A stretch of DNA of 64,000 nt, from NCBI GenBank assembly GCA_964577535.1, contig CAZNZO010000003.1:69620-133619 (forward strand). The letters are read 5' to 3'. Made by a program: the position numbers and the translations under genes. Below the pieces are notes generated by a model that was given only the letters and a program-made list of their open reading frames with translations, searched no databases and was not told the origin of the DNA. Each line of letters starts with the position of its first letter. Position 1 is the first letter of the stretch. Source of the stretch: an uncultured Oscillospiraceae bacterium. Its GTDB lineage: Bacteria; Bacillota; Clostridia; Christensenellales; CAG-314. Below are positions 6,050 through 54,106 of this stretch, one piece after another.

Positions 6050-7357
6050 TTATTTCTTGGGCTTTTTGGGCTGTCTGCAACCAACGTCCAGACCGTTGCC
6101 GGTCGGGGTGAAAAATACTTGATCTTTCACTTCGTCGGGCAAATATTGCTGTTCCACCCATCCGCCATAGTTGTGCGGATACTTATAGGGTACGTTGTCG
6201 AGAGTTTCCGTATCGCGCGAATAGTTTTTATCCATCAGGTAGGAAGGTACCCTTGCAGTGGGATGCGAGGTGGCACATTCGGTTGCCGCCACTAAAGTTT
6301 CTTCCACCGAGTTGGATTTGGGACAATTGCAAATATACAAAATTGCTTCCGTCAAAGGCAAGCGGCCTTCCGGCAGGCCAATGTTTTGAAAGGCTGTTAA
6401 AGCACTGGTTGCCACCACTAGCGCCATCGGGTCGGCCAAGCCAACGTCCTCGGCGGCGTGAATAACAATTCGCCTTGCAAGTAGCAGAGGATCTGTGCCG
6501 GCTTCCAGCAAGCGTTCAAACCAAAACATGGCCGCATTTGCATCGCTGCCGCGCATGCTTTTGATGAACGCACTGATCATATCGTAGTACATGCCTGTAT
6601 CCACCGAAAGCGCCGGCTTTTGCATGGATTGCGAAGCAGTTAGCTTGTCGACGTGCACTGCGCCGTCGGCATCCATATCGGTTGTCATAACGGCCAATTC
6701 CAAAGCGTTGTAGGCGTTGCGCAAATCTCCAGCACTGGTTTCGGCAATGTATTCCAACGCATCGCTATCCACCTCGATTTTTCGTCTAGAAAGCACTTCG
6801 TCGCGTTGCAAGGCATCTGCAAGCCCCTTCAAAACGTCTTGTTTGGTGAGTGGCAAAAACTCGAACACTCTGCAACGGGAAACGATTGCCCTAGTCATGG
6901 AAACGTAGGGATTTTCCGTTGTGGAGCCAATAAAGGTGATGACGCCTTTTTCAATGGCAGGCAACATGCAATCGCTTTGGGCCTTGCTCCAACGATGGCA
7001 CTCATCCAAAAGCAAATAGGTTTTTTGTCCATAGGCATTGAAACGTTTTGTTGCTTCATCAATTATCTTTTTGGCATCGGCAACACCGCTGCTTACTGCG
7101 TTTAGTTTTTCAAAATGGCTGCCCGTTGTGTTGGCAATTATGTTTGCAAGAGACGTTTTGCCAGTGCCAGGTGCGCCCCAGAAAATGCAACTGCCAATTT
7201 TATCCGCCTTGATGGCGCGACAAAGCAACGAACCGTCGTAGATCAAATGCGACTGCCCGATGAATTGCGAAAGTACACGCGGACGCATACGCTCCGCCAA
7301 TGGAACGTTACCTGTTTTTTCCTGTTGAAAAATTGAATTTTGTTCATACTGTGTCAT
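6050..7357 (-). CDS. rarA: replication-associated recombination protein A (AAA+ ATPase)
   Basis: 435-aa ORF with Walker A GAPGTGKTSLA, Walker B LLLDECHRW and a MgsA/RarA C-terminal region (MFWFERLLEAGTDP). Confidence 0.95.
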   Translation of the reverse strand: MTQYEQNSIFQQEKTGNVPLAERMRPRVLSQFIGQSHLIYDGSLLCRAIKADKIGSCIFWGAPGTGKTSLANIIANTTGSHFEKLNAVSSGVADAKKIIDEATKRFNAYGQKTYLLLDECHRWSKAQSDCMLPAIEKGVITFIGSTTENPYVSMTRAIVSRCRVFEFLPLTKQDVLKGLADALQRDEVLSRRKIEVDSDALEYIAETSAGDLRNAYNALELAVMTTDMDADGAVHVDKLTASQSMQKPALSVDTGMYYDMISAFIKSMRGSDANAAMFWFERLLEAGTDPLLLARRIVIHAAEDVGLADPMALVVATSALTAFQNIGLPEGRLPLTEAILYICNCPKSNSVEETLVAATECATSHPTARVPSYLMDKNYSRDTETLDNVPYKYPHNYGGWVEQQYLPDEVKDQVFFTPTGNGLDVGCRQPKKPKK

Positions 7358-7363
7358 GATAGT

Positions 7364-7392
7364 AGTTTAACATTTTTTTTGCCGTATTGCAA
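7364..7392 (-). promoter_or_regulatory. sigma-A-type promoter of rarA: TTGCAA-17-(TGt)TAAACT
   Basis: On the minus strand the -35 is at 7387-7392 and the -10 at 7364-7369, with a TG extension. The -10 ends 6 nt before the ATG and there is no SD. Confidence 0.45.
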
Positions 7393-7477
7393 GGCAAATA
7401 AGCCCACAAATAATAAAATATTATTTACTATATCTAGCGAAAAAAGACATTGCACCAAAACCAGGCCGAAAAATTGA

Positions 7478-7877
7478 TTGCGGCGGCATGAAGATGGCAA
7501 AAATGGGATGGAAATTAATGCAAAACAATGCGTGAAAAAATATGAGCGCAAAGAAGGAACGAAAATGCTGTTGCGTGCATTTGGAATCAACCACAACCGG
7601 CAAAGCGAAAAAAAACAAAAAAAAAGCCCGATGATTCGAGCTTTTGATGGGTGAATTTTGGGATGCGCTTTTACTAAAAACTGACAGGTTTAGGGAAACA
7701 GATAAACTTGGCGGCGGCATGAAGATGGCAAAAATGGGATGGAAATTAATGCAAAACAATGCGTGAAAAAATATGAGCGCAAAGAAGGAACGAAGCTGCT
7801 GTTGCGTGCATTGGGAATCAACCACAACCGGCAAAGCGAAAAAAACAAAAAAGCCCGATGATTCAAGCTTTTGATGG
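7478..7877. repeat. two near-identical ~170-bp direct repeats (7478-7650 and 7708-7877) separated by a 57-bp spacer, period 230 bp
   Basis: Hand alignment shows only about 4 substitutions plus A-run length changes between the copies. Confidence 0.9.
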
Positions 7878-8242
7878 ATAGGTTGGTGAATGTATTTTGG
7901 TTGATAAACTACAAAAACTATGCCACAACCCGTTGCAAACTTCTTGACTGCTTCGGTATGTTTGGGGCGATGAACCTAGAAGCAATGCACGAGACAAACA
8001 AAACGTCAGATTTGAAATACGCCTCGAATACTAGAAACTTGCTAGATGCACTCAATAGTTTGGGCATTTTAGGCAGTTTCTTTGAAACGTGCTGCTATTT
8101 GTGGTGCGAAATTAAATTTGCAAACATTGATTGCAAAGGAATTTTACCGATTTTCAAAAATTGATATAAACATTCCCGTTTTTTTGCGCTGATTGCAAAA
8201 TGGTTTTTCGGCAATTTTTGATGCGATTTACTTAGCAAAACT

Positions 8243-24883: not shown

Positions 24884-25603
24884 TTAGTAGCGCAATTTGC
24901 GAATTTTTCCGTCAACTTTGTGAATGACCACGCGGCCTTCCTGATTTTTTGCTTTTTCTTTTGCAAAAGCAATGGCTTCGGCTTGAGTTTTGAACAATTT
25001 CAATGCTCTGCTGCCCTTGCCAAGCTTAACTTGCCACAAACCGTCGTCTCTGCGCAAAGATACGTGATACACCTTGGCCGTGGTTTTTGCGGCGGGAGTT
25101 TCCTCTTCTTCGCCGTCGTCTTCCACAACTTCCACTTCAACGTCGTCCGCTTCGGTGGCAACTTGCTCTTCGGCAGGTTCTTCCACAGATGCTGGTTGTT
25201 CCGCTTGCTTTTTGGGTGCGGCCTTTTTTGCACGAGGCTTGGACTGAGAAACAGGTGCTGGTTGTTCGGCAACTTCGGCGGTTGCTTCGGATTGGGCTTC
25301 GGCAACAGGTTCGGGCTGCTCTTCTGCAACAGGTTCGTTGGCAGGTTCTGCCGGTTGCTCTTCCGGTTGTTCTTCGGTGGCAACTTGCGGCAAATCGTCC
25401 GTTGCAACGTCCGTTTGTTCTTCGGGCAAAGCGCTTTCGTCAGGTTGTTCTTCGACAACTTCTTGAGCTTTTTTGCAGCGTTGTTTTTTGCAATATACGC
25501 AGGTGACAACGATTAGCGCAATGGCAACAATAAGCAATGCCAAGCAAACCAAATGCCAAACAAGCACGTTAAGAGAGCCAATTGAAAATACTAAATTATT
25601 CAT
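24884..25603 (-). CDS. membrane-anchored protein with an E/P/Q/A-rich linker and a C-terminal DUF2188-like domain
   Basis: N-terminal TM helix ([20 protein letters not shown]), then a low-complexity acidic linker. The C-terminus reads [40 protein letters not shown]. Confidence 0.75.
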
Positions 25604-26325
25604 AACTACCCCCCTCGCGCAGTGCGTGCGCGAAACAAATCTTTTTTTATTATATCATTCATGAATGAAAGTTACAATATTTTTTGCAAATTTTTTTGCA
25701 AGTATGGTGAATTTTTGCATACCGTTGCGCTGTTTTCGTGCAAAATTTGCCTGTTTGGGTGGCGAAATGCAATTCGGAAAACATTTTGAATGCGAGAGTG
25801 CGTGGTTTTGAAAAATTTGATTTCGTGAATGGAAAAAAAGTACAGCAAAAATGTGCAACATGGCTGCGTTGCGATTGAGCGGCAACAACTACCATACCTG
25901 ATAGCAAAGACACAAAACATATTGTTGAATTTTGATTTAAATCAATGTCGCATAGTCACACAAAATTGTTTGGAACAATGAAATGATAAAACAGAAAAAC
26001 AACAAGCAAAAGCAAACCCACAGTTTAATTTAAAATTGCAGCAAGGCAGGCACGGCAAACAACCTTGCAAAGCCAAGCGTGATACAAGAAAATTATTTTA
26101 GATGCAACAGTGTTGTGCGAGAACATAGATACAAACAAAAACAAGAACGTTGCACAACAAAACCAGTTGAAAATTGCGTGGCAAATAGCAATGTGAAAAC
26201 ATCAAGACAGGCAGCCATTTGCACTATTATAACCAAACTATCGCAAAAGGATATCGAAATTGTGCGAGGCGTGTTGGAAACGCAAAAATTCGTCAAAAAA
26301 AGTGATAAAAAACGCAACGGAAGTA

Positions 26326-45403: not shown

Positions 45404-45625
45404 TAAAAAAACGACCTTGCTCCATCAAAGGGCAAACGGTCGTTGCGGTACCACCTTCGTTCCGATTTTGGCATGCCAAAAATCGCTCGTTAAAGTTTTT
45501 AACGGAACAACCCGAGCAAAACTACTTTCGCAAAAATGCGCCGTTTCGTTTTGCCAACAAACAAACTACATTTTGCACCTTTCGACACGGAATTTTCACC
45601 ACAGTCCGCTCTCTTTAGACGAAAA
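45404..45625 (-). promoter_or_regulatory. T-box riboswitch leader of valS
   Basis: The minus strand has AGAGAG...GGTGAAAA stem-I elements (from about 45614 downward) and an AGTAG box. The T-box sequence is AACGAAGGTGGTACCGCAAC (core 45445-45455). It overlaps the terminator stem ACGACC/GGTCGT (45411-45416 / 45439-45444) followed by a U7 run. Confidence 0.85.
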
Positions 45626-45662
45626 ACTTGCAAAACCTTTTGTTTTTGGTTTTTACTATTTA

Positions 45663-45692
45663 ATTTTAGCACATTGCTAGGCAAATTGGCAA
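45663..45692 (-). promoter_or_regulatory. valS promoter: TTGCCA-18-(TGc)TAAAAT
   Basis: Minus strand; the -10 is at 45663-45668 with a TG extension and the -35 at 45687-45692. This gives a leader of about 290 nt. Confidence 0.5.
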
Positions 45693-46053
45693 GCGTTTTT
45701 TGCCATGCCGCAAGACACAAAATGCGCTTTGTGGCAAGTTGCAGATTTTCGGCTGAGTTGCAGCGGCCCAAAATGCACAAATGGGCATAGTTTTTGATGA
45801 ATAACTGCGCAGATGCAGCAGGTAGACAATGGCTTTTAGGAGAGAGGAAACACGTTTGTTGCCAAAAAAACTTTGTTACAAATAGGGAAATGATTTTTGA
45901 TGAGTGCACTAGCTGTTAGCTTCCCACATTGTTAGGTGGGCAATGGCTTTTTGGGGCGGGTGTGAACTAGCAGTGCCGGCGAATATCACGGCCAAAACAG
46001 CACGTTAACGTGGTTTTTGCAAGCCTCAATGCAAAAATGCCCCAAAACCACCA

Positions 46054-46335: not shown

Positions 46336-46486
46336 TTTTATCACCTGCGTTAATTTTAGCACAAAAATTGTTTGACGTCAGCAACTTGCCAAAAAATTTA
46401 GAAACAATTTGTTGGGGCAAAACTTTTCACCTTTTTTGCGAAAAAACAATAGTATGCAGTATACAAAAAATAAAAGGGGAAAGTTT

Positions 46487-47476
46487 TTGAAAAAATTGGC
46501 AATTTTGGCGCTGATGATTTTGCTTGTAATGGCCGTGTTGGCGCTGGTGTGCGGTTGCAAAACCAGTGATGGCACTATTCGAGTTAGCGAAGTTACGCAT
46601 AGCATTTTTTATGCGCCGCAATATTTAGCAATGGCGCTTGGCTACTTTGAAGAAGAGGGCTTGACGGTGGAAATTACTAACGGTAGCGGCGCAGACAACG
46701 TTATGACGGCACTACTGACGGGGGAAGCGGATATTGGACTTATGGGATGCGAAGCAAACATCTACGTGTATTTGCAGGGCAAAAAGGACTATCCCAAAAT
46801 AATTGCACAACTAACCAAGCGGGACGGCAGTTTTTTGATTGCTCGAACGCCGATGGAAGGGTTTGATTATTCCCAGGCGGAAGGCAAAACGGTGCTTATG
46901 GGGCGAAAGGGCGGCATGCCAGCCATGATTTTGCAATACGTGCTTAACGGAAAAGGACTTGTGAACGGCACCAACGCGACAATGGATTATTCCATTCAGT
47001 TTGGCGCGCTTGGCCCTGCCTTTACGGGCGGAACGGGCGATTTTGTGCCTCTGTTTGAACCGGCCGCCAGCCAAGTTGTGGCAGAAGGCAAAGGGTACGT
47101 TGTTTCGGCCATTGGCATGGATAGCGGTGAAATTCCCTACACCTGCTACACCGCAACAGAAAAGTTTTTGAGCAGCAACGGCGAAAAAGCACAAAAGTTT
47201 TTGAAAGCCGTTTGGCGTGGCACAAAATATTTGTTTGAACATTCCGCCGAAGAGTGCGCACGGCTTATTTCGCCCTACTTCGACGGCACCGAGGAAAAAC
47301 TGATTGTTTCTGCCATTGGCAACTACAAAACGTACGACGTTTGGAACAGAACGCCGATTGTGAACAAGCAAGCGTTTGAACGCATTCAGCGCATTATGCA
47401 AAACGCCGGCGAACTTAGCCAAACGGTGGAATACGACAAGCTGGTGGACAACACCTACGCAAACGCAATTGGATAG
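46487..47476 (+). CDS. ABC importer substrate-binding lipoprotein (NMT1/THI5-like, NitT/TauT family)
   Basis: TTG 46487 lies 6 nt after AGGGGA and gives MKKLAILALMILLVMAVLALVCGC (lipoprotein-type signal). An alternative ATG at 46454 has no SD. Confidence 0.85.
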   Translation: MKKLAILALMILLVMAVLALVCGCKTSDGTIRVSEVTHSIFYAPQYLAMALGYFEEEGLTVEITNGSGADNVMTALLTGEADIGLMGCEANIYVYLQGKKDYPKIIAQLTKRDGSFLIARTPMEGFDYSQAEGKTVLMGRKGGMPAMILQYVLNGKGLVNGTNATMDYSIQFGALGPAFTGGTGDFVPLFEPAASQVVAEGKGYVVSAIGMDSGEIPYTCYTATEKFLSSNGEKAQKFLKAVWRGTKYLFEHSAEECARLISPYFDGTEEKLIVSAIGNYKTYDVWNRTPIVNKQAFERIQRIMQNAGELSQTVEYDKLVDNTYANAIG

Positions 47477-47491
47477 CAACGAGGCCACACC

Positions 47492-48238
47492 ATGCCCATT
47501 TTGAAATTTGAAAACGTAAGCAAAGTTTTCTACACACAAACGCAACAGACGATGGCAATAAAGGACCTCAACTTTCAGGTGGAAGAGGGACAATTTGTTG
47601 CGCTGATTGGCCCATCGGGGTGCGGTAAAACCACGATACTTTCGCTTGTGTGTGGATTGATTGAGCCGACGACAGGGAAAATTGTTTTTGACAAATCGGG
47701 CAGCGTGGGCTATATGCTGCAAAAGGACCAACTTTTTGAGTGGCGCACGATAGAGAAAAACGTGCTGTTAGGGCTGGAAATTCAAAAAAAGTGCACGGCG
47801 GAAAACGTGGAATTTGCGCATCAATTGTTGAAAAAATACGGGCTGTGGGAATTTAGAAATCACCTGCCGCATCAACTTTCCGGCGGGATGAGGCAACGGG
47901 CCGCATTGATACGAACGCTGTGCACCAAGCCGCAACTGCTGCTTTTGGACGAACCGTTTTCGGCGTTGGATTTTCAAACACGGCTGGGCGTTTGCGACGA
48001 CGTTTACGACATAATAAAGAAGGAAGGCAAAACGGCATTGTTGGTGACACACGACGTTTCGGAAGCAATTTCTATGGCGGACACAGTGATTGTTTTGACC
48101 AAGCGGCCGGCGACGGTTTTGGCAACGCATCAAACGCATTTAGAGCAGGTGCCAACTCCACTGAAACGGCGTGAAAGCCCTTCGTTTGCAAAACAGTTTG
48201 AATTGCTGCACGGGTACTTGACTGGGCAAAAAGAGTGA
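47492..48238 (+). CDS. ABC transporter ATP-binding protein (TauB/SsuB-like)
   Basis: Walker A GPSGCGKTT, signature LSGGMRQR and Walker B LLLLDEP. Confidence 0.92.
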   Translation: MPILKFENVSKVFYTQTQQTMAIKDLNFQVEEGQFVALIGPSGCGKTTILSLVCGLIEPTTGKIVFDKSGSVGYMLQKDQLFEWRTIEKNVLLGLEIQKKCTAENVEFAHQLLKKYGLWEFRNHLPHQLSGGMRQRAALIRTLCTKPQLLLLDEPFSALDFQTRLGVCDDVYDIIKKEGKTALLVTHDVSEAISMADTVIVLTKRPATVLATHQTHLEQVPTPLKRRESPSFAKQFELLHGYLTGQKE

Positions 48239-48418
48239 AAATTGGCAAAAAACGCATATTATGTTTGGCATAATAGTATACAAATTGCGATTTTCTGGCA
48301 AAGCCCGCTGGTTTTGGCGTGAAATTTGCTTAGGATAAGAACAACAGCACCGCCACCACTTGTGGAACAGGAACCATTCGGGAAACCAAAATAAATAACG
48401 TTTTCGGCGGCAAAAGGC

Positions 48419-48797
48419 GACAATTAAAAAACAAAAATTTACTGCAAAAGGCAACTGTTGAGAATAGAAAACTTGTTACAAAACAAACCGAAAAGCAAAC
48501 CGAAAAAGTGTGTAGATGAGTTTTGAATAGTGGTTGAAAAAGATTGAGCAATTAAACCCAAAACACTTGGAAGCATCAAATCTTTTCAACAAAAGCAGAG
48601 AGGTTGCCAAGGCATTTTTCCTTATGTTTGGAAAATGTACTACACCATTTTGGGCGCTAAAAAACAATTAATGAATACAAAACTCAATAAAAGCAATAAT
48701 GTTTTCGATAGTCGAATTTCACAATTAAGAAACCAAAACTTGTTGCGAAAGGCAACGATTAAAATCACAAAACTTGTTTCAAAATGAACCGAAAAAC
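48419..48797. repeat. diverged ~77-nt direct repeats (48419-48495, 48720-48797), period ~301 bp, inside the ATPase-permease gap
   Basis: The copies align as caattaaRaaac...gcRaaaggcaac...aaaacttgtt.caaaa..aaccgaaaa, about three quarters identical by eye. Confidence 0.6.
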
Positions 48798-48861
48798 AAT
48801 GGAAAGAAACAAGCAAAGCAGGCGAACAAAAAAGAAAAAATTTACATGCACGGAGGAAAAA

Positions 48862-49677
48862 ATGCAACACGCAAACACCACTTTCACCAAAGAACATTTG
48901 CAATTTTTGGCACGCAAAAAGCAACGAAAAATTTTGGTGCACGTTACGCAAGTGGGAGTGCTTGTTGCCGCTTTGTGCCTGTGGGAAGTTGCGGCGCGCC
49001 TGCAATGGATTGATAGCTTTATCACAAGCAGCCCGTCGCGAATTTTTGCAACTTTGTGCCAGCTGATTTCCGACGGCACGTTGATTCGCCACGCATGGAT
49101 TTCCACTTTGGAAACACTTGCCGGTTTTGCAATTGGAACGGTTGTTGGGTACGCCGTGGCAGTTGCTCTGTGGTGGAACAATTTTTTGAAAGACGTTTTT
49201 GAACCCTACGTTGTTGTTCTTAACAGTTTGCCCAAAATTGCGCTTGGGCCGCTGATAATAATTTGGGTGGGTACGGGCAAGGCGGCAATAATCACCATGG
49301 CAGTTCTGATTTCCGTTGTTATCACCACCATCACCATTTTGAACGGTTTTTTGAAAACAGATGCCGACAAAGTTTTGCTGCTGCTAAGCATGAAGGCAAA
49401 CAAACTGCAAATTTTTAGCAAGCTTGTGGCACCATCCAACTTACCAACACTTATGGCAACGTTAAAAATAAACGTGGGAATGGCGTGGATTGGCTCCATA
49501 ATGGGCGAATACCTTGTTTCCAAAGAGGGGTTGGGGTATTTGCTGGTTTATGGAAGCCAGGTTTTTAGGTTGGATCTTGTTATGACCTGCACTATTGTTC
49601 TTTGCGCGCTGGCCGGTGTGATGTATGCCGTTGTTTCCGTGCTGGAAAAATTGGCAACAAAAAACTTTGTGCAATGA
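48862..49677 (+). CDS. ABC importer permease (TauC/SsuC-like)
   Basis: The start is set at ATG 48862 behind a GGAGGA SD (MQHANTTFTKEHLQF...). The protein has six hydrophobic segments. Confidence 0.9.
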   Translation: MQHANTTFTKEHLQFLARKKQRKILVHVTQVGVLVAALCLWEVAARLQWIDSFITSSPSRIFATLCQLISDGTLIRHAWISTLETLAGFAIGTVVGYAVAVALWWNNFLKDVFEPYVVVLNSLPKIALGPLIIIWVGTGKAAIITMAVLISVVITTITILNGFLKTDADKVLLLLSMKANKLQIFSKLVAPSNLPTLMATLKINVGMAWIGSIMGEYLVSKEGLGYLLVYGSQVFRLDLVMTCTIVLCALAGVMYAVVSVLEKLATKNFVQ

Positions 49678-50608
49678 CTTTTGTAGCGGCGGCAAACACG
49701 CAAAAACCAAACAGGGAAACAAAAGCGTAGCCATATTTTAGGGCGAAATCGAACCCCAAAAAGGAAAGAGCGCAGGTTGAGCCAACCAGCAAAAAAGCCA
49801 ACAGATTTTTGTTGCCGACAAACACGCCTTCGGCCGCTTGCAAAACTGGCAGCAAATTGGCGCAAATACTTGCAACAACGCTGAAAAACACAGCAGAGCA
49901 CGCCAGCGCCACAAGAGGCACGCTGTTGTTGCGACCAAACAGCGGCAGGCTGAGGGAAAAATCGCTGCACCAAACGGCCAAAGCGGCAAGAATTGCAAAA
50001 ACTGCGGCGCAAATTGCCGATGGCAAACAACAACCGCCTTTTTGCTTCTGGCCAAGCGAAACCAGCACGCCCAAAATTGTGGCAACGGAAAAGGCGGCGT
50101 AGCCTACTGGATAAAACTTGCTGACGGTTGCAGTACCTGCTGCCTTGGGCAGTGTTGCAATGGCAACCAAATATGCAACAATAAGCACAACGGAAAGGGC
50201 GTTTATTGCCTTCAAAAAGGAAAAATTCGTGCACAAAACAACCAAACAACAAATGGCAACCACAGTGCTGCAAACAAATTTTGGCAAGCCAAGCGAATTA
50301 CGCAAGCAATCATCAACGCCGGCGAGCAACGTTGCGGCGCACACCAAACTGCACAAACAAAACAGCCAAGTGGCAACAGGCATACCTTTGCCAAAACACA
50401 CGGAAAAAAATTGCTGCACTGTTTTGCACTGCCGGGCTGCGCAGGCCTTTCGCACCACGAAACAAAAAGTGAAAAAGCAAATGGCAAAAATAAAGACGTT
50501 GGTGAAATTGCCAAAGAAAATTGATGCTTCCTTTCCGCTTAGAAAACCAACGCCTATGCAACTGCCCACAACTGTGGCACAATCAAAAAATACGTCGCGA
50601 ATTTTCAT
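49592..50608 (-). CDS. ykvI: YkvI-family membrane protein
   Basis: MKIRDVFFDCATVVGSCIGVGFLSGKE resembles the YkvI N-terminus (..IGTVVGAGFASGQE). The longer ORF-track start (50722) adds codons rich in TTA and ATA. The 3' end overlaps the convergent permease gene by 86 nt. Confidence 0.7.
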   Translation of the reverse strand: MKIRDVFFDCATVVGSCIGVGFLSGKEASIFFGNFTNVFIFAICFFTFCFVVRKACAARQCKTVQQFFSVCFGKGMPVATWLFCLCSLVCAATLLAGVDDCLRNSLGLPKFVCSTVVAICCLVVLCTNFSFLKAINALSVVLIVAYLVAIATLPKAAGTATVSKFYPVGYAAFSVATILGVLVSLGQKQKGGCCLPSAICAAVFAILAALAVWCSDFSLSLPLFGRNNSVPLVALACSAVFFSVVASICANLLPVLQAAEGVFVGNKNLLAFLLVGSTCALSFLGFDFALKYGYAFVSLFGFCVFAAATKVIAQSFLLPIFPARKQRHTSHRPARKEQ

Positions 50609-50708
50609 ACAGTATGGTATGCAATTCGCGGCGTATAAAGAAGTTGCGGCTGTTGCAAAATGAACGACTCGCCCAAAAACCGCAACTAAAAACAAAAGAC
50701 ATATTAAG

Positions 50709-51100
50709 TTGTTTTGCATCAAAATTGATGTGATTTAGGTGCGAAATGAGCACTTACATAAACATCACATTGATGCTGTTTTTTATAAAAAAAGCAAATT
50801 TATAGCGCAACGCCGGATGCGTTTTAGTGCAAAATTGATGCAAATTTAAGCGCCATATTGATGCTGTTTGCAACAAATTGACACATATTTTAACGCAGTG
50901 TTGATGTGTGTGAGTGGCAAACAGATTATAAAGCCACGCCGACGTGTTTAGTCTCGACACCGCATTTAAGTGTCTGGCAGAAAAGCACAATTTTAGCGCC
51001 ACATTGATACGTTTTCTTGCAAAATTGGCACGATGCAAACAAAAATTTGCACTATTTTAGCGGCCAAATTGTCGCAATTTTGGGGCTACGCATGCGATTT
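50709..51100. repeat. degenerate tandem array with a ~21-22-bp period, unit roughly TTTTAGCGC(C)A(A/C)AATTGATG
   Basis: The best units are tgttttgcatcaaaattgatg (50710), gttttagtgcaaaattgatg (50821), caaatttaagcgccatattgatg (50841) and tattttaacgcagtgttgatg (50886). Further units are attttagcgccacattgatac (50989), gttttcttgcaaaattggcac (51010) and ttttagcggccaaattgtcgc (51054). Confidence 0.7.
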
Positions 51101-51142
51101 TTTGCAACAAAACAAAATTTTGCACTTCAAAGGGCAATGCGG

Positions 51143-52009
51143 TTACTTTTGAAAAAGCTTATCCACTGCTGCTTGATCGTAGCAATATTTTTTGCCACAA
51201 AAATGGCAACAAACTTCAATTTGTCCCACTTCGTTAACAATACTTTGCGCTTCTTCTTTGCCAAGTCCCCGCACAAGTTTATCAATTTTGCGCTTAGAGC
51301 AATCGCACTTATAGGTTACAGATTTTTCCACCGTAAACACTGGATTGAAACGCCCGAAGAAACGTTGGATAACATCGCGCGCGGTACTGTTTTCGAACTG
51401 GTAGCTCATTTCGTCCATGGCGTACATAACAGTTTCCACGGCGGAAAGCAAGCTTTCGTCGCAGTTGGGCATCACCTGCACAAACACGCCTCCGGCCGAT
51501 TTACATTTTTCGTTTTGCAAGCCGACACCTAGCGTTACGCCGCAAGGTTGTTGTTCGCTGGTTGCGTAGTAGTAAGCAAAGTCGTTGGCAATTTCGCCAC
51601 TTATTAGCTCGGACGAACCAACGTAGGGTTGCTTCATACCGATATCCTTAACAACGGTTAGTTGCCCATTGTGGCCCACTGCCGCACCTACGTCTAAGTG
51701 GCCATTTTCACGTAAAACCGTTTCAACAACAGGGTTTTCCACCGTGCCTTTCACGTGGTTTTTGCCATCGGCACACACCGTTATAAGCCCGATGGGGCCA
51801 CCACCATCAATTTTGGCCGTTAGGTGATAGCGTTCGTCTTTTAGTTCTTCGCCCATAAGTGCCGCCATTGTTAGCGCCCTGCCCAGTGCGGCCGCCGCCA
51901 TAGGTGAAAGCCCGTGCGCTTTGATGGCCTTGTTGACGATATCCTTCGCTTCCACTGCGGAAATTATCAAAGAATTTTCTATTATTGCTTTTGTCAAAAT
52001 CGATGCCAT
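51143..52009 (-). CDS. hslO: redox-regulated chaperone Hsp33
   Basis: The C-terminal zinc centre reads CDCSKRK...CCHFCGKKY. The start is set at ATG 52007-52009 behind AAGGGGTG. Confidence 0.92.
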   Translation of the reverse strand: MASILTKAIIENSLIISAVEAKDIVNKAIKAHGLSPMAAAALGRALTMAALMGEELKDERYHLTAKIDGGGPIGLITVCADGKNHVKGTVENPVVETVLRENGHLDVGAAVGHNGQLTVVKDIGMKQPYVGSSELISGEIANDFAYYYATSEQQPCGVTLGVGLQNEKCKSAGGVFVQVMPNCDESLLSAVETVMYAMDEMSYQFENSTARDVIQRFFGRFNPVFTVEKSVTYKCDCSKRKIDKLVRGLGKEEAQSIVNEVGQIEVCCHFCGKKYCYDQAAVDKLFQK

Positions 52010-52010
52010 T

Positions 52011-52730
52011 TCAACACCCCTTTTTTGCATAGTAAGTTATTCGCAAGCTGTCTTCCCGAAGCGGTTTGCCATATTCGGCGGAAACTTGCAGCAAAGTGAA
52101 TCCCACATTTTGCAATGCGTTTGCAACATCTTCCTGCTTGTGAACATATTGCACGTGCCGTTCGTCTTGGCGACTGTAAAATTGGCCGACCTTTTCGAAC
52201 AACGACAGTTCCATTTGAACCTTTTCGCCCAAAAGTTTGTTTGTCCAAAGCAGCGTTGCTTCGTCACAATCGTAGAAAAAGGTTTCGTTGCCCAAAACGT
52301 TTTTTAGCTTATAGGGCGAAGAAACGTCGAACACAAAAGCGCCGCCATCCGTCAAATTGTTGAATATGGTGGCAAAAAACTGCGGCAATTCCTGCGGGGA
52401 AAGGTAGTTTACACCATCGTTGACAATTGTTATCATGTTGGCCTTGCGTGTTAGCGCAAGTTTGCGCATATCTTGCAAAACAAAGGTTGCTTTGCGGCAA
52501 TTTTGCGATGCTTCTTGCAACATTTCCGCACTGGAATCAATTCCCAAAAGGGAAAATCCGCCTTTGGCAAGCAGTTTTGTCATTTTTCCAGTGCCGCAGG
52601 CAAGATCGACAACGCTTTTTGCATTGCAACTTTGCGCAACAGCAAACAAATATTGCGACCAACTTTCGTAGTCGCAATCGTTGTGGGAAAACCTATCGTA
52701 ATATTTTGCCAATACGGAATAGTTTTTCAT
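52011..52730 (-). CDS. class I SAM-dependent methyltransferase
   Basis: 239-aa ORF with motif I VVDLACGTGK. Confidence 0.85.
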   Translation of the reverse strand: MKNYSVLAKYYDRFSHNDCDYESWSQYLFAVAQSCNAKSVVDLACGTGKMTKLLAKGGFSLLGIDSSAEMLQEASQNCRKATFVLQDMRKLALTRKANMITIVNDGVNYLSPQELPQFFATIFNNLTDGGAFVFDVSSPYKLKNVLGNETFFYDCDEATLLWTNKLLGEKVQMELSLFEKVGQFYSRQDERHVQYVHKQEDVANALQNVGFTLLQVSAEYGKPLREDSLRITYYAKKGC

Positions 52731-52948: not shown

Positions 52949-54106
52949 TTATTCGGCATCTTCGGTTGCAGGCGTTTCGGACGTTTCTTCAACTGGCGTT
53001 GCAACTTCTTCTGCAACTTGTTCCGTAGCAACCTCTTCTGCAACGGCTTCGGGCGCTTGTTCCACTTCTGCAACAGGTGTTGCGACAGTTTCTTCATGTT
53101 CCGATACTTTTTTGTGCTTGTTTCTTCTTGCTTCTCTGCGAGCGGCAGCCGCTTGTTCGGCAGCTTCTCTTGCTTGTGCCTCGGCAGCTTCTTTTGCACG
53201 CAGTTCACGCATAACGTCCTTTTTCTTTTTGACTTCCACAGGGTGGAACAATGCAAAAGTGCGCATCATAAACGTTTGCCACACCAAGGGGAAATACATT
53301 CCGCCGAACATGAACATTAAAATTAGCAGCAACATGCGGAACATGGACGTGGACGGAATGACAAGCATCAAAATGAGGGGAATGAGCGCAATAACAACGT
53401 GAATCAGGTTGGGGAACACGTTCATCCACAACAAACGCCACGAATCATCCAAGTTTTCGAAAACGGATTGCTTGTAGGTGACGGATACGGAGCACAAAAT
53501 TAGCAAATAGCACACCACAAACAGCCACAAAATGCTAAGCAAAACTGTTAGCACAATTGCCAGCCACAAAATTGTTTGTGCAAGCCAAGCGTAGAACGTG
53601 TAGATACCAAACACGCCAAAGGCAATGATGGCTGTGGAAATGAAAGCATAGCCTGCGTTGGACTTTATGCCCATCCACAAACTTTTTAGAACGCCCACTG
53701 TGGAAAGTTTTCCCGTCCAAAATGCGTCACGAATGACGGCAAAACCGCCGGAGAACACCACGAAAGTTATCAAAGATGCGCCAACCATCATAAGGCCGTA
53801 GGTGACGTTGGAATTGAAAACTTGTTGCTGGTAGTATTCTTCAACATCCCACCATGCACCGGTGGAAAAACCGAAAATGTTTTGGGTGGGCAACTTTTGG
53901 TAAACTTCGCTCAGTGCAGTTTGTCCCAAAGTTCCAACAAGAAAAATGGGCGCAATCATAATTAGCATAAGAATGCTGAAACCAAACAAACGCCAAAGGT
54001 TATCACGATACAAAACCTTGAAAAATCCCCAAGCTCCCAAACGATTGCGGCGTTTGATAACGTGCGCATTACGTTCGTTGTTGAGCCTAATTTTGCTGAA
54101 ATCCAT
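52949..54106 (-). CDS. YesL/DUF624-like polytopic membrane protein with a long charged Ala/Glu-rich C-terminal tail
   Basis: 385-aa ORF with 6-7 TM segments. The tail reads KKKKDVMRELRAKEAAEAQAREAAEQAAAARREARR...EETSETPATEDAE. Confidence 0.7.
   Translation of the reverse strand: MDFSKIRLNNERNAHVIKRRNRLGAWGFFKVLYRDNLWRLFGFSILMLIMIAPIFLVGTLGQTALSEVYQKLPTQNIFGFSTGAWWDVEEYYQQQVFNSNVTYGLMMVGASLITFVVFSGGFAVIRDAFWTGKLSTVGVLKSLWMGIKSNAGYAFISTAIIAFGVFGIYTFYAWLAQTILWLAIVLTVLLSILWLFVVCYLLILCSVSVTYKQSVFENLDDSWRLLWMNVFPNLIHVVIALIPLILMLVIPSTSMFRMLLLILMFMFGGMYFPLVWQTFMMRTFALFHPVEVKKKKDVMRELRAKEAAEAQAREAAEQAAAARREARRNKHKKVSEHEETVATPVAEVEQAPEAVAEEVATEQVAEEVATPVEETSETPATEDAE

Follow-up and report, generated by a model that had tools for sequence, protein, structure and literature searches.

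The window analysed here, a 64-kb stretch of DNA, has as its nearest genomes MAGs of uncultured gut Clostridia related to Candidatus Fimimonas. Within it, the genes hslO and ykvI-like, both on the minus strand, enclose a spacer that begins at the hslO stop (51143) and is filled with degenerate tandem repeats. The non-coding interval between the two genes (50609–51142, 534 bp) consists of the repeat array (~50700–51142) and a non-repetitive segment of 110 bp (50609–50718). The features of the locus, in the direction of transcription, are as follows:

51143–52030, minus strand: hslO (Hsp33), upstream of the array, assigned by Pfam and NCBIfam matches
50700–51142, minus strand: the whole degenerate tandem array, delimited by its 21.5-bp period, minus-strand PWM matches and repeat-family offsets
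50609–50718, minus strand: non-coding and strongly conserved, immediately preceding the ykvI-like ATG and outside the repeat
49592–50608, minus strand: gene of the ykvI-like membrane protein (338 aa), on the downstream side of the array

The neighbours of the array are genes for membrane proteins, a methyltransferase, Hsp33 and an ABC transporter, and also valS and asd. No regulator gene adjoins the array, no rep, Par or integrase gene lies near it, and the 64-kb window contains no tRNA genes. A 385-aa ORF upstream was considered as a possible DNA-binding protein and rejected as such, as it encodes a membrane protein with an acidic tail.

The 338-aa ykvI-like protein has no Pfam or NCBIfam match, and a search of 5.8 billion proteins at E ≤ 1e-20 yielded only eight homologues, all of them gut-metagenomic. 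Its start is placed at the ATG at 50608 and not at ~50702, because the homologues all begin with MK.D..ATVVG; an in-frame stop lies upstream of this start in the related locus L003. On the evidence of the homologues we rejected the start at 50719 chosen by gene callers (375 aa, 37 codons further upstream), and it is because of this upstream start that an exact-protein look-up of the 338-aa product returned no match. Across the interval 50609–51142 the sequences of three Logan contigs match the window exactly, and over the whole of the loci retrieved they differ from it by no more than one base. A scan of one metagenome collection with a 21-mer from the conserved segment returned a single unrelated contig; the collection apparently does not include this organism.

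The periodicity of the spacer is clear. Base autocorrelation of positions 50709–51100 has peaks at lags of 21, 43–44 and 64–65 bp (z = 3.5, 3.4 and 3.7, respectively), and the best-fitting period by a three-harmonic score is 21.5 bp, with a score reached by none of 500 first-order Markov shuffles. Scored for this period, the 400-bp segments of the 64 kb reach their maximum at 50701, about 5 sd over the mean, which makes the array the strongest non-coding periodicity in the window; stronger ones occur only within genes and are multiples of 3. The period is still found when the best 89-bp block is taken out, and it is seen in each half of the array, the distal half carrying it by itself. A previous reading of the letters without database searches (the sequence-only reading) had proposed a periodic array between hslO and ykvI, and in this respect it is borne out.

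Two other minus-strand genes of the window, at 24884–25603 and 52949–54106, encode membrane-anchored proteins with long acidic low-complexity repeat tails rich in E/P/A/V/Q, and give the strongest 12- and 24-bp DNA periodicities of the window. The protein of 24884–25603 ends in a small basic globular domain.

The array consists of about 20 degenerate head-to-tail units of 17–30 bp (mean ~22) in a single orientation, and on the gene (minus) strand the unit can be written as CATCAAT-nTk-GCGC-TAAAAy. A PWM built from nine units recovers all nine on the minus strand with 15–25 bits. The nine start at 50711, 50756, 50821, 50844, 50864, 50887, 50990, 51011 and 51055, and the distances between them (45, 65, 23, 20, 23, 103, 21 and 44 bp) are near multiples of 21.5. 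The PWM also confirms the four directly tandem units that had been read at 50821–50906. Repeat families recur within the array at offsets of 43, 88, 146 and 190 bp, indicating a partial organisation in 43-bp A/B dimers. The units and blocks referred to below are:

50711–50730, minus strand: u1 (20.1 bits), adjoining the conserved 110-bp segment and holding the inverted repeat CATCAA-tt-TTGATG at 50717–50730
50756–50775, minus strand: u2 (15.4 bits), with the inverted repeat CATCA-atg-TGATG; its counterpart in the sister species L001 is CATCAACGTGATG
50802–50890, minus strand: 89-bp block of about four units, comprising u3 (at 50821), u4 (50844), u5 (50864) and part of u6
50887–50906, minus strand: u6 (19.5 bits), whose L001 orthologue is well preserved (CATCAACACTGCACTAAAAT, 19.2 bits)
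50932–50950, minus strand: 19-bp, one-unit indel relative to L001, within the most degenerate stretch of the array (50907–50989)
50990–51074, minus strand: distal units found with the PWM, u7 (50990, 24.7 bits), u8 (51011, 17.4 bits) and u9 (51055, 17.2 bits)

So degenerate is the repeat that Tandem Repeats Finder does not call it even at a minimum score of 30. The best-scoring units (25.0 and 24.7 bits) belong to the 89-bp block, whose paralogues elsewhere in the array (families D1–D3) are 75–86% identical. The claim that at least seven to nine units clearly match a stated consensus was correct as to the existence of nine units recognisable by the PWM, but overstated the agreement with the consensus, which has one exact match and four with at most two substitutions. 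Five matches are found when up to three substitutions are allowed and seven when up to four are allowed, and at the latter level the consensus also matches 19 sites outside the array. The A+T content of the array is ordinary (61.6% vs 59.5% in other intergenic DNA).

Comparison with related genomes provides the main evidence on how the array arose. The gene order hslO – spacer – ykvI-like is common to three species, represented by the window, its sister L001 and L134, while the length of the spacer between hslO and the conserved segment is ~100 bp in L134, ~320 bp in L001 and ~424 bp in the window. The L134 spacer contains two to three unit-like sequences (CACCAACGTGGCGCCAAAT and CGTCAATTTTGATGTAAAA). 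L001 lacks the 89-bp block 50802–50890 (four units, among them the two with the highest scores) and the 19-bp block 50932–50950 (one unit). The locus therefore has both properties by which a VNTR is recognised, that is, a significant common period and copy-number variation by whole units between relatives. No variation in copy number was seen within the species, for which three identical Logan contigs are available; a further Logan contig from another sample (L138) ends at window position 50806, at the boundary of the 89-bp block, and so hints weakly at polymorphism.

Where it can be aligned, the array shares 72% identity with L001, in a comparison that involves two comparator species and a repeat alignment that may be out of register, which would inflate the apparent divergence. 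Four-fold sites of the hslO, ykvI-like and methyltransferase genes are 63–77% identical between the window and L001 and 58–65% identical (58–59% in the comparison of these three genes) between the window and L134, and the coding DNA is 80–90% identical. The array thus diverges at the neutral (synonymous-site) rate. When orthologous units of the window and L001 are compared, 9 of 24 positions of the CAAT core differ, which is worse than the unit average, and the core is lost in several of the L001 units. A period of 21–22 bp is weak yet detectable in L001 (p ~ 0.03), which indicates that the array is older than the split of the two species and is decaying. Since the blocks within the window array are more alike (75–86%) than expected from the neutral orthologous identity, the 89-bp block is most simply explained as a duplication in the window lineage.

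The position of the array coincides with a rearrangement. In more distant orthologous loci (L139, L140 and L141) the genes for an NMT1-type binding protein, an ABC ATPase, a permease and the ykvI-like protein, probably one operon in these relatives, follow each other on one strand, and a 575-aa gene lies between ykvI-like and hslO. In the window, the ykvI-like gene is convergent with the permease gene, and their 3' ends overlap by 86 bp (49592–49677; region compared, 46409–50608). The distant gene order implies that the window lineage has inverted the ykvI-like gene and lost the 575-aa gene, and the array grew at the junction created by this inversion. The spacer was also considered as a decayed remnant of the 575-aa gene, which was rejected, as tblastn with that gene gave no significant match.

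A different repeat is present at the corresponding place in L003 (84% HslO identity; 6890–7930), where the hslO–ykvI spacer is ~1 kb long and contains a repeat of ~125 bp. Its units carry a terminator-like hairpin (...aacggaagtagtgctcgttgccgttttttttgtg...); the repeat is interrupted by an assembly gap of Ns and is not called by Tandem Repeats Finder. The hslO–ykvI junction seems to be prone to repeat growth.

Bacterial intergenic minisatellites and VNTRs, such as the MIRU-VNTR of Mycobacterium tuberculosis and the MLVA loci of many species, are the known systems closest to these observations. Like them, the array is made of head-to-tail units of tens of bp in a spacer between genes of the same strand, changes by whole unit copies among close relatives and is conserved no better than expected from the neutral rate. 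It differs in being far more degenerate, to the point that Tandem Repeats Finder misses it, in its partial organisation as a 43-bp dimer, and in that its variation has so far been seen between species and not between strains. The array is probably an ordinary member of this class.

The unit had been said to recur as single copies in unrelated intergenic regions, which would point to a dispersed element. Intergenic PWM matches outside the array with at least 10 bits number 19, compared with 12.8 ± 4.1 expected, and at 14 bits or more there is one, compared with 1.8 expected; the density of matches in genes is similar to that in intergenic DNA outside the array. The proposed single copies at 25732, 46353 and 57414 score 10.6–11.9 bits and belong to about 100 matches of at least 9 bits in the window. 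Allowing up to three mismatches, an 18-mer has ten matches vs 5.2 expected, six of the ten within the array. The recurrence therefore does not hold, and a dispersed intergenic repeat of REP, BOX or MITE-like type was rejected, because matches occur at the level of chance and equally in genes; this test covers the 64 kb and the related loci. The best match outside the array (51280–51299, plus strand, 19.2 bits) is inverted and lies inside hslO, and we attribute it to chance because it is formed by the codons of the conserved CxCSKRKIDK motif (SKRKIDK) of Hsp33. When 80 hslO loci of related genomes were scanned for PWM clusters, none contained an array, and only the orthologous u6 in L001 scored well.

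The length of the unit and its direct orientation recall plasmid iterons, the Rep-binding direct repeats of 17–22 bp found in R6K, F, RK2 and pPS10. The array resembles them in unit size, in its ~22-bp spacing (two helical turns) and in the direct orientation of the units, and an A/T run lies close to the units at 50779–50793, as might suit iterons of plasmid or phage type, a chromosomal replication origin or a partition site. The setting is different, being chromosomal with the housekeeping neighbours valS, hslO and asd, and the array is accompanied by no rep gene, no DnaA-box cluster and no other origin context. DnaA boxes are as frequent as expected by chance; one of them lies ~20 bp past the array, inside hslO. 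The cumulative GC skew is flat. Blastn against plasmids gave no match, and a scan of IMG/VR with a 19-nt unit pattern returned 50 contigs with a single copy each, that is, chance matches and no arrays. In place of near-identical units under selection, the array has one exact and four near matches to its consensus, an identity far lower than that of iterons, evolves neutrally and has no plasmid or phage counterpart. An iteron, origin or partition function is accordingly extremely improbable. The wider suggestion that the units are binding sites for an iteron-binding or nucleoid-organising protein likewise fares badly in view of the divergence at the synonymous rate, the loss of the CAAT core in several L001 units, the missing rep gene and DnaA-box cluster and the lack of dispersed motif copies, although a protein specific to this lineage may bind the units.

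The same reading had noted that the unit, on the gene strand, contains a good extended -10 element, so that the array could be an amplified promoter module. Each unit would in that case start transcription towards the ykvI-like gene, and in its favour the units do carry the hexamers TAAAAT, TAAAAC or TATAAT on the gene strand. The extended -10 motif TGnTAWAAT, however, is absent from the array, all ten of its matches in the window being elsewhere, among them TGCTAAAAT at both 45663 and 46353. Neither a -35/-10 pair at 16–18 nt nor a TGn combined with a -10 was found in the units: the distance between -35-like and -10-like elements is ~8 nt within a unit and ~29 nt between units. A single weak sigma-70-like site is present in the array (9/12 matches), and the region as a whole has three such sites vs 2.1 expected. 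Consensus sequences for sigma-54, ECF sigma, Spo0A-box, CodY, FNR and ARG-box, compared by eye, were rejected, as none fits the units.

The promoter that had been called at 45663, by contrast with the extended -10 attributed to the units, is supported. The valS promoter (45663–45700) reads TTGCCA-18 nt-TGC-TAAAAT, with a good extended -10, and the TGCTAAAAT at 45663 is located seven bases upstream of a T-box leader. This leader, upstream of valS at 45425–45656 on the minus strand, scores 84.2 bits (E = 1.4e-18); it was missed in the Rfam search of the whole window because its score is below the gathering score of 93. The valS promoter and the array units have CAAT-nTG...GCTAAAAT in common, and u7 (TCAATGTGGCGCTAAAATTG) in particular resembles the -10 region of the valS promoter (GCAATGTG followed by CTAAAATTA) with three extra bases. 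The three-base insertion destroys the TGn spacing in u7, and array units in general differ from the valS promoter in having neither TGn at -15/-14 nor a -35 element at 16–18 nt. Of the proposal that a promoter-derived module had been amplified, the tandem amplification is upheld by the whole-unit indels and the growth of the spacer; a promoter origin of the units would be only a resemblance, and tandem promoters driving the ykvI-like gene are very unlikely.

The array is also unusual in the arrangement of its A/T tracts. It has 23 AnTm tracts of 4 nt or more, in phase at 10.7–11.1 bp with a Rayleigh value of 9.7, which none of 500 shuffles reached and which exceeds that of every other 420-bp segment in the 64 kb. 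Leaving out the recent 89-bp block does not abolish the phasing, and it is present but weaker in L001 (R = 5.2, reached by 7 of 500 shuffles). These properties are consistent with a structural DNA element, in which phased tracts would render the 424 bp anisotropically flexible or writhed and would favour the binding of nucleoid proteins or of the RNA polymerase alpha-CTD upstream of the ykvI-like promoter. Phased A-tracts forming curved DNA are known upstream of Gram-positive promoters, for example in the upstream region of the Clostridium perfringens plc gene, and the array is similar in carrying, ahead of a gene, A/T tracts that keep step with the helix. It differs in that it has 23 short tracts (4–5 nt) spread over 424 bp as a by-product of the repeat unit, and in that the predicted curvature is not elevated above background. 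A dinucleotide wedge model gives 8.8 degrees per turn for the array, with 9.8 as the mean of the window and 26.7 for a phased A6 control, and an end-to-end ratio of 0.875; these curvature values are indicative only. The ~11-bp phasing follows automatically from the repetition of a 21.5-bp unit holding two tracts, and the A+T content is, as noted, unexceptional. We consider a structural role improbable.

The 110-bp segment between the array and the ykvI-like gene behaves very differently. It is 98% identical to L001 and 94% identical to L134, above the identity of coding DNA. It contains a hairpin, AGTTGCGG...CCGCAACT (50642–50687), followed by TCTTTAT, and CATACCATA is located 4 nt ahead of the ykvI-like ATG; no evident Shine–Dalgarno sequence is present in the segment. 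Its predicted folding gives z = -1.1, and it has no Rfam match. The segment could be the hslO terminator combined with a promoter for a near-leaderless mRNA, or a new leader element.

No intrinsic terminator was called between the hslO stop and the array, and the first hairpin with a T-rich tail is the one at 50642–50687, after the array. It is conceivable on these grounds that the array acts in RNA, as a long hslO 3' UTR or as hslO–ykvI intercistronic RNA, with CAUCAAU...GCGCUAAAAU as a protein-binding or structural module. Against this, an Rfam search of the window gave no match at the gathering threshold, and a search of 50400–51300 gave nothing credible even at E ≤ 10, the sequence diverges neutrally, and no strong or conserved inverted repeats were found inside the array. 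An element acting at the RNA level is hardly probable.

The most serious rival to a minisatellite origin is an operator array. A transcription factor would recognise the inverted repeat CATCAA-N2-TTGATG at 50717–50730, the CATCAAT half-sites further upstream would lie on one face of the helix, and cooperative or titrating binding would tune the expression of the ykvI-like gene. The palindrome in u1 is the sole perfect match to this pattern within the window and is partly kept in both relatives, the L134 form being CGTCAATTTTGATG and the L001 form CATCTATTCCGATG. In u2 there is likewise an inverted repeat (CATCA-N3-TGATG), which is kept in L001, the units are spaced at multiples of ~21.5 bp, that is, two helical turns, and a strongly constrained regulatory segment adjoins the array. 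The upstream units, on the other hand, diverge neutrally, with loss of the CAAT core in several L001 orthologues; L134 has just two or three units; the neighbours include no regulator gene; and the motif has no other sites in the 64 kb. Weighing these points, we assign the operator array a low but appreciable probability. It may well be that u1 and u2 form a real operator beside the constrained segment; the copies further upstream would in that case be half-sites that hitch-hike with it.

We favour, with moderate confidence, the interpretation of the array as a lineage-specific degenerate minisatellite, the product of a near-neutral tandem expansion of an ancestral spacer or operator module. 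The ancestral state would have been a short spacer between hslO and the conserved segment upstream of the ykvI-like gene, containing an operator-like CATCAA-N2-TTGATG inverted repeat and one or two neighbouring unit-like sequences. Replication slippage or unequal recombination would then have amplified this spacer by one, two or four units at a time to reach ~20 units of ~21.5 bp. The copies would subsequently have decayed by point mutation at an approximately neutral rate, with occasional refreshment by new block duplications, and both the ~11-bp A/T phasing and the -10-like TAAAAT hexamers would have been inherited from the amplified unit without selection. According to this scenario the array would have little or no sequence-specific function, and at most it would supply the ykvI-like gene with additional upstream half-sites or spacer DNA.

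Two observations speak against the minisatellite interpretation. The periodicity and the A/T phasing span all 424 bp, old degenerate units included, and u7 scores 24.7 bits despite its distance of 100 bp to the recent block. Selection acting weakly on a physical property, and not on the sequence, would give such phasing of the whole array, L001 included. The interpretation as a neutral minisatellite would be contradicted if more genomes were found to keep the unit number and the CATCAAT/GCGCTAAAA positions of the unit well above the level of four-fold sites.

The 110-bp segment is a better lead than the array, being a candidate cis-regulatory element upstream of a membrane-protein family with few known relatives. 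The array is of little significance as it stands, and might be used as a marker for strains or species. It does show how a short spacer at a rearranged junction can grow four-fold through unit duplication. One further scenario, which we regard as improbable, is that the array is a young, lineage-specific set of ~20 CATCAA-N2-TTGATG half-sites phased on a single helical face, recruited after the inversion of the ykvI-like gene and the loss of its operon promoter, and acting as a cooperative or titrating sink for a regulator that controls the downstream gene. If this were true, a young array of binding sites would be regulatory DNA born by minisatellite expansion, and if the units do bind a regulator, the three related species would represent successive stages in the birth of a binding array.
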